This document shows positions 28,428 to 54,773 of a DNA stretch of 54,773 nucleotides, one piece after another. Numbering within the stretch: the stretch's first letter is position 1; the number at the start of each line of letters is the position of its first letter. The stretch spans positions 1-54,773 of the forward strand of contig JAGVOD010000112.1 of assembly GCA_020052935.1 (NCBI GenBank), given 5' to 3'. The DNA is from an archaeon (GTDB lineage: Archaea > Nanobdellota > Nanobdellia > Woesearchaeales > UBA11576). A program made the position numbers and the translations under genes. The notes beneath the pieces were generated by a model that made no database searches, was not told where the DNA came from, and saw only the letters and a program-made list of their open reading frames with translations.

Positions 28428-28637
28428 GCGCTGGTGAAAATCTCTCCTTCGGAGGTTGCCGCCAGGCTTCGCTTGTCGATACTTTCTCAGATATGCGTCA
28501 TCCCCGTAGGGGGTACTTAGAAACCTTCGGTTTCTGGTACCTCGCTCGCTACGCTCGGAGGCATCCCCCTGCCGCATGCGAAGATTATCGCAAAGGGTCG
28601 CTACGCTTAAAGGCGGCAACACAATTTTCACCAGCGC
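28428..28637. repeat. scaffold element, GC-rich subfamily 2 (copy b), in the leader/promoter region of the channel operon
   Basis: Terminal helix GCGCTGGTGAAAAT (28428-28441) / ATTTTCACCAGCGC (28624-28637). Side hairpin CTCC-TTC-GGAG. Inner helix TTGCCGCC (28456-28463) / GGCGGCAA (28612-28619). The cargo shares GCCAGGCTTCGCT, CCCCGTAGGGGG and CAAAGGGTCGCT with copy a at 36227-36389. Confidence 0.7.
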
Positions 28638-35601: not shown

Positions 35602-36159
35602 TCAGTCGAACTTGACCTTGACGACCTTCTTCTCCTCTGCAGAGGCCTCGAAAGACTCCTTCTGCGTGAAGTGGAACCAGCCTGCAAAGACATTGTTCGG
35701 GAAGACCTGGATCTTGTTGTTGAACTCCATCACCAAGTCGTTGTAGAGCTGCCTTGCATAAGATATCTTGTTCTCAGTGCCTGTCAGCTCTTCCTGCAGC
35801 TGCATGAAGTTCTCATTCGCCTTGAGCTGAGGATAATTCTCAGAGACCGCGAACAAGGTCTTCAAGGTATCAGTCATCATGTTCGATGCCTTGGCCTTCT
35901 CCTTCATCGAACCTGCGTCCATGAAAGCAGTCCTTGCCTTGGTGACGTCTGTCAAGACGCCTTTCTCATGCTTCATGTAGCCCTTCACAGACTCAATCAG
36001 GTTCGGGATAAGGTCCGCGCGCCTCTTGAGCTGCACATCTATCTGCGCCCAGGCATTCTTCACCTGGTTGTTCAGCCTGATGACACTGTTGTACAGAACT
36101 ATCAAGAACAGTATCAGGACTGCTGCTATAATGCCTATAATAAGTCCTAATGCCATCAA
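35602..36159 (-). CDS. lemA: LemA family protein
   Basis: N-terminal TM plus NSVIRLNNQVKNAWAQIDVQLKRRADLIPNLIESVKGY. It sits in the classic LemA-HtpX gene pair. Confidence 0.9.
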   Translation of the reverse strand: MMALGLIIGIIAAVLILFLIVLYNSVIRLNNQVKNAWAQIDVQLKRRADLIPNLIESVKGYMKHEKGVLTDVTKARTAFMDAGSMKEKAKASNMMTDTLKTLFAVSENYPQLKANENFMQLQEELTGTENKISYARQLYNDLVMEFNNKIQVFPNNVFAGWFHFTQKESFEASAEEKKVVKVKFD

Positions 36160-36226
36160 AACACCCCCATGTTATTATGATTTAAAAACAGATGTGGTAT
36201 TTATTTATAAAGCTTGTGGAACAGAT

Positions 36227-36389
36227 GGCTCTGTCCCAAGACTCGCTTCGCTCGGGCAGCGCCAGGTTCGGCTAAGTGATTATTCTGCTGAAAGCCCTGT
36301 CCCCCCGTAGGGGGCGACCCCCGACGACGGGCGCTATGTCATTGTAGAAAAGCCTCACAAAGGGCGCTGCCTCCTCTTGGGACAGAGCC
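36227..36389. mobile_element. MITE-like scaffold element (subfamily 2, copy a): 15-bp perfect TIR plus 9-bp flanking direct repeat
   Basis: TIR GGCTCTGTCCCAAGA (36227-36241) / TCTTGGGACAGAGCC (36375-36389). GGAACAGAT sits immediately outside both ends (36218-36226 and 36390-36398). Inner helix GGCAGCGCC (36255-36263) / GGCGCTGCC (36363-36371). Confidence 0.7.
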
Positions 36390-36481
36390 GGAACAGATGC
36401 TGCCAAGAAAACCGCCACAGCCACCTTGGTGCTCAGCAAGAAGTAGATAGGTATTTAAACAATAATTGTTTGGATAGGACT

Positions 36482-36946
36482 ATGAGAAAAAAGCATCTGT
36501 TTTTGGGTGTCATGATTGTCCTGGCCGTTCTCATAATTTCAGTCATTTACATCTTCAGTTCTCAGCAGAATCCTCAGCCGCAACTGGTTGATGGAGACTT
36601 ATCCGTCAGATTAGATATCCATGACAGCCTGCCAAAATCAATCCTTATCCAAAACGACGGGACCGTGACATTCACAGAAGGCGGAAAGACAGAACAGGCA
36701 ACGATCCCCGCAGAGGAAGCCGTATCACTGAAGCAGTCTATCCAGGAAAGCGATTTCTTCTCCCTGGATGAGAGATACGAAGGCTCGGGCTGCTGCGACT
36801 TCGTCGCCCACACTATCATTGTGACAATAGGAAACACCAACCATTCGGTCTATTGCTATAACGGATGTCCTGCAGAGTTCGATATGATCAAGGACAGGAT
36901 AGAAAACGCCTGGCCCAAAAAGATAGAATACTCGGGATTCTCATGA
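36482..36946 (+). CDS. membrane-anchored hypothetical protein (154 aa)
   Basis: MRKKHLFLGVMIVLAVLIISVIYIF anchor. I start at Met36 of the track ORF because the upstream codons lie in the MITE region. Confidence 0.5.
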   Translation: MRKKHLFLGVMIVLAVLIISVIYIFSSQQNPQPQLVDGDLSVRLDIHDSLPKSILIQNDGTVTFTEGGKTEQATIPAEEAVSLKQSIQESDFFSLDERYEGSGCCDFVAHTIIVTIGNTNHSVYCYNGCPAEFDMIKDRIENAWPKKIEYSGFS

Positions 36947-39639: not shown

Positions 39640-40056
39640 ATGAACGAAAGATATTACTTGGACACTGCATTATGGGTTGATATCTGCGAAGACAGAACAG
39701 GATACTGCGGCGAGGACCTTGGAGAGTCTCCACTAAAACTCCTCATCATACTGAAAACCAAAAAACATAGGTTAGTAATCACGGATGTCCTGGTGCGGGA
39801 ACTCGAGAGCACATATTCTACGGAAGAGCTGAATGGGATATTCGCACCATTTGAGGATATTCTGGATAGAATCCGCGTCACGAAGGAACAGATGGAAGAG
39901 GCCAAAAAGCTGGCCAAAGACCTTGATGTCCCTCCAGGGGACGCTTTGCACGCAATAATCGCGCGTGACAGCAAGCTCGTGCTGGTCGCCAGAGACAACC
40001 ACTTCAGGAAATTGAGAAGCATTTCAGAATACTACACGCCCGAAGAACTCATTTAA
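39640..40056 (+). CDS. PIN-domain (VapC-like) nuclease
   Basis: Acidic residues sit in PIN positions (YYLDT.., VLVRELES, GDALHAIIARDSKLVLVARDNHF). Confidence 0.7.
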   Translation: MNERYYLDTALWVDICEDRTGYCGEDLGESPLKLLIILKTKKHRLVITDVLVRELESTYSTEELNGIFAPFEDILDRIRVTKEQMEEAKKLAKDLDVPPGDALHAIIARDSKLVLVARDNHFRKLRSISEYYTPEELI

Positions 40057-54624: not shown

Positions 54625-54773
54625 GACACGAGAGGTGGAGAGGGGTATTTATTTGTTGCGGGGAGGTTTAAAAATTGTTTAGTACCGATTTCAGTTAACA
54701 CTTTTGGCGGGTATTTAAATAGGGTCTTGTATGTCTGTTTTTCTTGTGGAGGAGATGTTTTATGATGTACAAA

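Follow-up and report, generated by a model that had tools for sequence, protein, structure and literature searches.

A probable IS5-family MITE with a conserved folded core at the edge of the lemA promoter in a Woesearchaeal genome

The closest described relatives of the element presented here are the IS903 group within the IS5 family and the MITEs that derive from IS5-family elements, which it resembles in its 9-bp target duplication, its GGC termini and its inverted ends of about 15–18 bp. In these groups a single DDE (PF01609) transposase gene fills an element of about 0.9–1.2 kb, as it does in the partner elements discussed below, and IS5-family MITEs are, like ours, short gene-less derivatives that share only the ends. 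Correia elements of Neisseria are about 100–160 bp long, have inverted ends and are present in hundreds of intergenic copies near promoters; their conserved interior contains a functional site, they duplicate a TA and act largely at the RNA level, and we know of no link to an IS5-type parent. Insertion a set number of base pairs away from a landmark, with no damage to the gene, is displayed by Ty3 at RNA polymerase III start sites and by Tn7, via TnsD, at attTn7, and for both it has been shown experimentally that dedicated targeting proteins or contacts between the integrase and a factor are involved. The abundance of MITEs in archaea has been surveyed in a 2024 census, in which a Woesearchaeal genome is among the richest, with 105 per Mb (PMC11602168). 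For IS903, a target preference of WTTYA-N9-TRAAW is listed in Table 1 of PMC2577343, citing Hu and Derbyshire.

The window analysed here, a stretch of 54,773 nt from an archaeon of the order Woesearchaeales, contains a segment that we regard, with a probability of roughly nine in ten, as a non-autonomous MITE inserted by an IS5-family DDE transposase at the edge of the lemA promoter. The segment, its neighbours and a relative elsewhere in the window have the following features.

35602–36156, minus strand: lemA, whose promoter edge is the insertion target (PF04011; ATG at 36156)
36200–36217, minus strand: lemA promoter, with the TATA box (36200–36211) and a 6-nt BRE-like spacer (36212–36217) abutting the duplication
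36218–36226, unstranded: left copy of the 9-bp target-site duplication, GGAACAGAT (sequence inspection)
36227–36241, plus strand: left terminal inverted repeat GGCTCTGTCCCAAGA, the 5′ arm of closing helix P1, with a GGC terminus
36245–36251, plus strand: small hairpin P2 (GC-TTC-GC), confined to the 5′ side (fold)
36255–36263, plus strand: 5′ arm of helix P3, GGCAGCGCC (inverted-repeat search)
36294–36301, plus strand: 5′ arm of helix P4, which closes the tip (fold and covariance model)
36303–36322, plus strand: invariant 20-nt tip motif CCCCGTAGGGGGCGACCCCC, in which GGGGG (36310–36314) pairs with CCCCC (36318–36322)
36323–36332, plus strand: 3′ arm of helix P4
36363–36371, plus strand: 3′ arm of helix P3, GGCGCTGCC
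36375–36389, plus strand: right terminal inverted repeat, the 3′ arm of P1 (inverted-repeat search)
36390–36398, unstranded: right copy of the 9-bp target-site duplication, GGAACAGAT
36452–36946, plus strand: divergent neighbour gene (ATG at 36482), with its own TATA-like box at 36452–36459, 54 nt from the right duplication
28454–28621, plus strand: core of the 28428 relative (element 28428–28637), with ends GGCGCTGGTGAAAAT and no duplication

The terminal inverted repeats are complementary at 15/15 positions, with 133 nt between the arms, and the element thus spans 163 bp (36227–36389). The flanking repeats agree at 9/9, and the 15-bp perfect inverted repeats and 9-bp direct repeat that the earlier note had reported at 36218–36398 are confirmed at exact coordinates. 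Including the G with which the left end begins would lengthen the direct repeat to 10 nt, an ordinary boundary ambiguity. No second site for the GGCTCTGTCCCAAGA 15-mer was found in the window at up to two mismatches. At 163 bp, and with only spurious ORFs overlapping it, the segment is short (below about 500 bp) and non-coding, as is characteristic of MITEs.

According to the mechanism that we propose, an IS with matching GGC...GTCCCAA-type ends would supply an IS5-family DDE transposase in trans, and the enzyme would bind both 15-bp inverted ends of the element. The target would be cut with a 9-bp stagger and the element joined in, after which gap repair would leave the two copies of GGAACAGAT. 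The choice of target was not random, the duplicated 9-mer being 6 bp upstream of the lemA TATA box, a position used at many promoters by the family as well as by the parent IS. The transposase that moved the window copy was probably of this kind, and the landmark may be the BRE/TATA sequence itself or proteins that occupy it. Both the intact ends and the exact duplication point to a recent, probably cut-and-paste, move.

The insertion lies in the divergent spacer between lemA and the gene starting at 36482, the gene neighbours being those named previously. Reading outward from the left end, the duplication is followed by ACAAGC and then by TTTATAAATAAA, which together form the lemA promoter with its BRE-like spacer, so that the insertion point is 6 bp upstream of the TATA box. 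The TATA-like TTTATTTATAAA had been placed at 36201–36212 but actually occupies 36200–36211, one base further left. The promoter sequence is conserved in the same-genus relatives L032, L033 and L034, and nine relatives contain no family copy within 1.5 kb of lemA, their far flank not being syntenic. Since the same promoter sequence occurs in same-genus genomes with no family copy within 1.5 kb, the TATA box is native to lemA. The promoter having pre-existed, it was not created by the element, and the suggestion of the earlier note that the insertion may have re-wired a promoter is unsupported. In the same-genus genome of L033 (G011), a different hairpin element (arms GGCCAGCACCACCACGC / GCGGTGGTGGTGCTGGC), which is without the tip motif, occupies roughly the same promoter edge as the window element, some 30 nt upstream of the TATA box of the lemA orthologue.

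The window element belongs to a large family. In the 1.64-Mb genome, which is assembled in 117 contigs, 47 related places were detected by BLAST, 90 matches by a profile built from five full-length copies, and 130 matches by a covariance model of the internal core (E ≤ 0.01), and the 20-nt tip motif, CCCCGTAGGGGGCNNCCCCC, occurs 81–92 times as against 0 for a reversed control. When each copy was anchored on the motif and its ends were set at the farthest 13-nt helix containing no more than one mismatch, 34 end-bearing copies of 155–172 bp were obtained. No pair among these is more than 90% identical (median 52%); the copy nearest to the window element is about 72–77% identical to it, and no near-identical sibling was found in the genome. 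For a census of duplications, the 9-mers on either side of the ends were compared, allowing offsets of 2 nt. In 7 of the 34 copies they match at 8/9 positions or better (mean 0.4%, maximum 6% with permuted partners), a 50-fold excess over chance at the level of the family, and matches of at least 7/9 are present in 15 (3.8% expected by permutation). Wider offsets disclosed no extra repeats, and none at variable distances from the ends. The earlier note had regarded the element as non-autonomous and put in by a transposase, and had proposed a genome-wide count of copies and duplication lengths; the count (130 cores and 34 end-bearing copies, of which 7 have a 9-bp repeat of at least 8/9) shows the enrichment in 9-bp repeats and, together with the IS5-family IS with similar ends described below, upholds that view.

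About half of the end-bearing copies have no recognisable duplication, although their helices are 97–99% intact. Intact helices in copies mostly devoid of a clean duplication are not what simple neutral decay after insertion predicts, and the pattern points to selection in place, to loss of flanks by recombination between copies, or to sampling bias. The 28428 relative in the window is clearly homologous, as had been claimed: it scores 86.8 bits with the covariance model (E 4.5e-15), its ends differ and it has no flanking repeat. For roughly 40 core copies of other lengths, mostly about 130 nt, the search detected no IS-type ends, and they show no enrichment in duplications. Hence the notion that the whole population of such elements is linked to mobility applies to the class of about 163 bp with IS-type ends, but not to these other cores. 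Examples of the ~130-nt copies are C106:2334-2452 and C97:11068-11185, and some are nested in a second, outer copy of the closing helix (e.g. on C18, C36 and C87).

A candidate source of transposase is indicated by the ends of contigs. An IS5-family IS is present in three copies in the genome, each broken across contig ends (C11/C15, C35/C110 and C68/C89): three contigs stop 98 nt inside its left end, which reads GGCTCAGTAGAAAGTA followed by a leader and an ATG, and three others stop 98–99 nt inside its right end, which carries the last residues of the transposase frame. When the six unique flanks are matched with one another, they form three perfect 9-bp duplications, TATAATTCA, GAAGTCATC and CTCCTTTGA. 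This IS has GGC termini of the same type as the MITE, and its interior is missing from the assembly, so that only the N- and C-terminal parts of the transposase frame are assembled. Its ends match those of the window element at only 10/17 positions, and it is therefore probably not the cognate element. A fourth IS-like end, on C64, has its first 10 nt in common with the window element. The Pfam search of this genome for PF01609 (DDE_Tnp_1) was negative, as explained by the missing IS interiors, and a complete cognate transposase, with GGCTCTGTCC-type ends, was not found. The statement that no transposase is encoded in the window is thus correct for the window itself, but contig ends elsewhere in the genome carry IS ends, including the start and the end of a transposase frame. 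The window also terminates in repeats: positions 1–97 and 54676–54773 lie inside 97–98-nt repeats, each common to three other contig ends (C13, C64 and C77, and C23, C63 and C79, respectively), and these belong to the termini of two additional multi-copy elements at which the assembly was interrupted. On the left side of the window, a TATA-like box (112–119) begins 15 nt from the repeat boundary.

PF01609 is present in 105 of the 301 genomes of the order, and two of these relatives contain complete elements with ends of the same subtype as the window MITE and its siblings: a 908-bp IS (L058) with ends GGGTCTGTCCCAAATCT, which match the window element at 15/18 positions, and an 889-bp IS (L065) with ends GGCTGCGTCCTGAATCT, both flanked by a duplication of 8/9. 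Each encodes a DDE transposase of about 272 aa, matching PF01609 at 76.5 and 71.7 bits. The search for an autonomous IS that the earlier note had envisaged has accordingly yielded complete elements in relatives and IS ends in this genome, but no complete transposase in the latter; exact scans of a collection of genome contigs for the two IS ends gave no match. The identical 20-nt end was found on different interiors in two metagenome contigs, one of which (L073) has an 8/9 duplication. The best NCBIfam match of the two transposases is the IS5-family model NF033579, at 118–131 bits and thus below the cut-off of 140, and among annotated elements they come closest to IS5-like ones of haloarchaea, with about 30% identity. 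In tblastn, 72,556 plasmids yielded matches in 133 records, none of them above 60% identity; the best matches are haloarchaeal elements, and there is no enterobacterial genus among the ten commonest. In a group comparison, no inverted ends were found around a haloarchaeal ISHma13 copy. In L058 (156-977), the transposase frame runs through the right inverted repeat to a stop codon inside the flanking duplicated target, and the last residues of the protein consequently depend on the insertion site.

The position of the copies relative to promoters follows a general geometry. A TATA-like box lies 13–21 nt outward of an end in 24 of the 34 end-bearing copies (26/68 flanks), as compared with 4.7% for random positions outside long ORFs. 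Behind 25 of the 26 boxes there is an outward ORF, with a start codon mostly 28–45 nt after the box. The profile of the outward flanks is A-rich at positions 10–13 and T/A-rich at positions 16–22. The IS shares this setting, in that a TATA box occurs at +16 from the right end in all three copies in this genome; in another genome (G255), two of the four flanks of an IS with unrelated ends have the same TATA spacing, and one perfect 9-bp duplication is present. On C35/C110, the order is TATA, 6 nt, GAAGTCATC, IS, GAAGTCATC, MITE, (T)AAGTCATC, and the last 330 nt of C35 together with the end of C110 contain three copies of (G/T)AAGTCATC beside one promoter. Since the IS is located in a 9-mer already duplicated by the MITE, two independent insertions must have used the same nine bases. 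The core itself is oriented at random relative to the promoter side (10 vs 12).

Elements could come to lie near promoters through survivorship in short spacers, but a peak of one to two bases and the re-used target are not readily accounted for in this way. The IS903 flank motif as listed in PMC2577343 was considered as a full explanation of the targeting and rejected, the window site agreeing at 2/5 positions on the promoter side and 0/5 on the other; the A-rich positions outside the duplication resemble the motif, in the form given there, only loosely. An explanation that we would give about an even chance has two linked parts: that the IS5-family transposases of the order read the BRE/TATA sequence or bound TBP–TFB, parents and MITEs alike landing with the duplication 6 bp upstream of TATA, and that the hairpin core with its tip motif is a selected DNA-level module rather than filler. 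At the DNA level the core would, for example, join both ends of the 163-bp element or bind a factor. If true, insertion at promoter edges would constitute a safe-harbour strategy not described for archaea.

The folded core was analysed in an alignment of 30 copies, in which P1, formed by the inverted ends, has 14 bp, P3 has 9 bp and P4 has 8 bp, and a G/C helix makes up the tip. In this alignment 95.8% of the paired cells are complementary, vs 74.3% in shuffles and 41–50% when the partner is slid, and double changes occur in 27 of the 35 pairs. The left and right arms of P1 covary across the 30 copies, and in P3 99.3% of cells are paired, with double changes in 7/9 pairs. The P2 stem is GCC/GGC, GCT/AGC or AC/GT in other copies. 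Folding gives a z-score of −4.1. Co-evolution of the ends with their transposases would account for covariation in P1, but that in P3 and P4 is not explained in this way; the design of the element includes both the internal helices, which covary, and the invariant motif at the tip. G–U pairs are found in only 10 of 1048 cells and are balanced by A–C mismatches, so that the constraint is strand-symmetric, as for a DNA hairpin or palindrome, and a strand-specific RNA is unsupported. When minimum free energies were compared between the strands, the one opposite the motif came out slightly ahead; this result was set aside because counts on the fixed structure show no G–U bias.

In the 28428 copy a 51-nt insertion is accommodated in the loop of the tip, which identifies GGGGG/CCCCC as the tip helix; the CCCCGTA upstream in the tip motif is conserved as well. 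A canonical triple helix at the tip was also considered. A C+·G–C triplex needs a parallel third strand, and reasoning from the geometry (C-tract, G-tract and C-tract in this order, linked by loops of 3 nt), the G tract is antiparallel to each of the C tracts, which rules out the canonical parallel form. The motif may not be confined to MITEs. A 1207-bp IS with ends GGCTTCATCCATTAAT in G255 (L055:1226-2432) and its 81%-identical relative in G101 (L105:1501-2705) have a conserved hairpin between the stop codon of the transposase and the end of the element. The 20-mer of the G255 hairpin equals the variant of the motif that two of the MITE copies here possess, that of G101 deviates from it at two positions, and the adjoining stem displays compensatory changes between the two genomes. 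In these IS the covariance model aligns only P4 and the tip, at a marginal 22.4 bits (E 0.025) and 18.8 bits (E 0.14), and a sequence-only profile of the core aligned just the 20-nt motif of the complete IS (E 0.23). The presence of the family core inside these IS is therefore best treated as a lead.

The motif is present in 92 copies here vs 0–1 in three same-genus genomes and is patchy across the order (46 of about 280 genomes); a search of about 120 genomes from the remaining orders of the class did not detect it. Such a patchy distribution fits a mobile element. The empty site, defined as AAGCTTGTGGAACAGAT joined directly to GCTGCCAAG with a single 9-mer and no element, was sought as the earlier note had proposed, and none was found among the relatives, sequencing runs and metagenome contigs searched. 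A DNA search of 40 relatives recovered lemA at about 73% identity, with a far flank that is not syntenic. The element sequence was detected in 8 DNA runs, with small shares, and in no RNA run; four runs yielded only relatives' contigs, with about 88–95% likeness over lemA, which stop short of the element ends and contain no joints. One contig encodes an identical LemA protein but extends only 24 nt upstream of the gene, no record was found for the protein of the neighbour gene (ATG at 36482), and the left junction had no exact match when metagenome contigs were scanned for it.

Other readings of the segment may be weighed against insertion by an IS5-family transposase. The strong covariation (95.8% of cells paired, double changes in 27/35 pairs), the folding z-score of −4.1, the invariance of the 20-nt motif and a TATA box about 15 nt from the start of the element would all suit a structured non-coding RNA gene, in which the inverted repeat would be the closing helix, the TATA box at 36200–36211 would drive transcription rightwards, and the 9-bp repeat would be incidental. 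We nevertheless consider such a gene very unlikely: the scarcity of G–U pairs (10/1048 cells), balanced by A–C, favours neither strand, the core is oriented at random to the adjacent promoter (10 vs 12), and the TATA box is that of lemA, conserved in relatives without the element. Moreover, flanking duplications are enriched, the ends are common to insertion sequences, and 92 motif copies here contrast with 0–1 in same-genus genomes. In Rfam no match was obtained at gathering thresholds, and only chance-level matches at E up to 10.

Even less credence is due to a hairpin repeat of the REP/BIME or IS200/IS605-derived (PATE) type, spread as folded ssDNA by an HUH (Y1) transposase, despite the rod-like, Watson–Crick-only fold, which is what a DNA hairpin would show, and despite the ~40 core copies, mostly of ~130 nt, in which neither IS-type ends nor an enrichment in duplications could be found. 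HUH elements make no duplication, whereas the window copy and its class have 9-bp duplications and GGC-type ends common to DDE-transposase elements, and Y1_Tnp (PF01797) was not found in this 85%-complete genome. That the 9-bp repeat is a local coincidence beside an inverted repeat would be in keeping with a third occurrence of GGAACAGAT in the window (at 39885, unrelated, with 0.48 expected) and with the half of the family that has no recognisable flanking repeat. Its probability is close to negligible, since a 9/9 match at both exact boundaries has a chance of 4^-9, or about 4e-6 per element by arithmetic, the family shows a 50-fold excess of matches of at least 8/9, perfect 9-bp duplications flank three IS copies here and one in G255, and widening the offsets did not reveal repeats at variable distances from the ends. 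A MITE inserted by an IS5-family transposase thus remains the reading that we prefer.

Taken alone, the window copy is an ordinary, well-preserved MITE insertion of a known kind. The family as a whole carries more weight. Non-coding DNA is scarce in this symbiont-type genome of 1.6 Mb, with about 93 kb outside long ORFs, and about 130 cores of about 120 nt take up a considerable part of it; the family also breaks the assembly at the parent elements, and the distance between its insertions and TATA boxes is fixed. Should the transposase actively direct this targeting, the family would provide an archaeal example of promoter-guided integration and would help in understanding how highly compact genomes can retain mobile DNA while their genes stay intact. 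Annotators of DPANN genomes should mask these elements before they call small RNAs or regulatory motifs. In the literature searched, neither this family nor any targeting of promoter edges in archaea was found to be described.

Compared with the known systems, the kind of element is familiar, and it is the near base-precise aim at promoters and the conserved folded core that are unusual. Because the transposases score below the family cut-off and their best matches are haloarchaeal proteins of about 30% identity, the putative membership of the IS903 group rests on the hallmarks (9-bp duplication and GGC termini) rather than on transposase phylogeny, and the partner IS, at 889–908 bp, are shorter than those of the group. 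IS903 prefers targets with symmetric A/T-rich flanks around the 9 bp (PMC2577343, Table 1), whereas here the landmark is one-sided and at a fixed distance from an archaeal TATA box. REP/BIME elements and PATEs are likewise abundant intergenic hairpins with stems kept complementary, but they differ in having no target duplication, no DDE-type ends and an HUH transposase as partner. Correia elements are similar in size, inverted ends and many copies, but the present family duplicates 9 bp and gave no signal at the level of RNA. With Ty3 and Tn7 the family shares insertion at a fixed distance that spares the gene, which in their case is known from experiment and here from geometry only.
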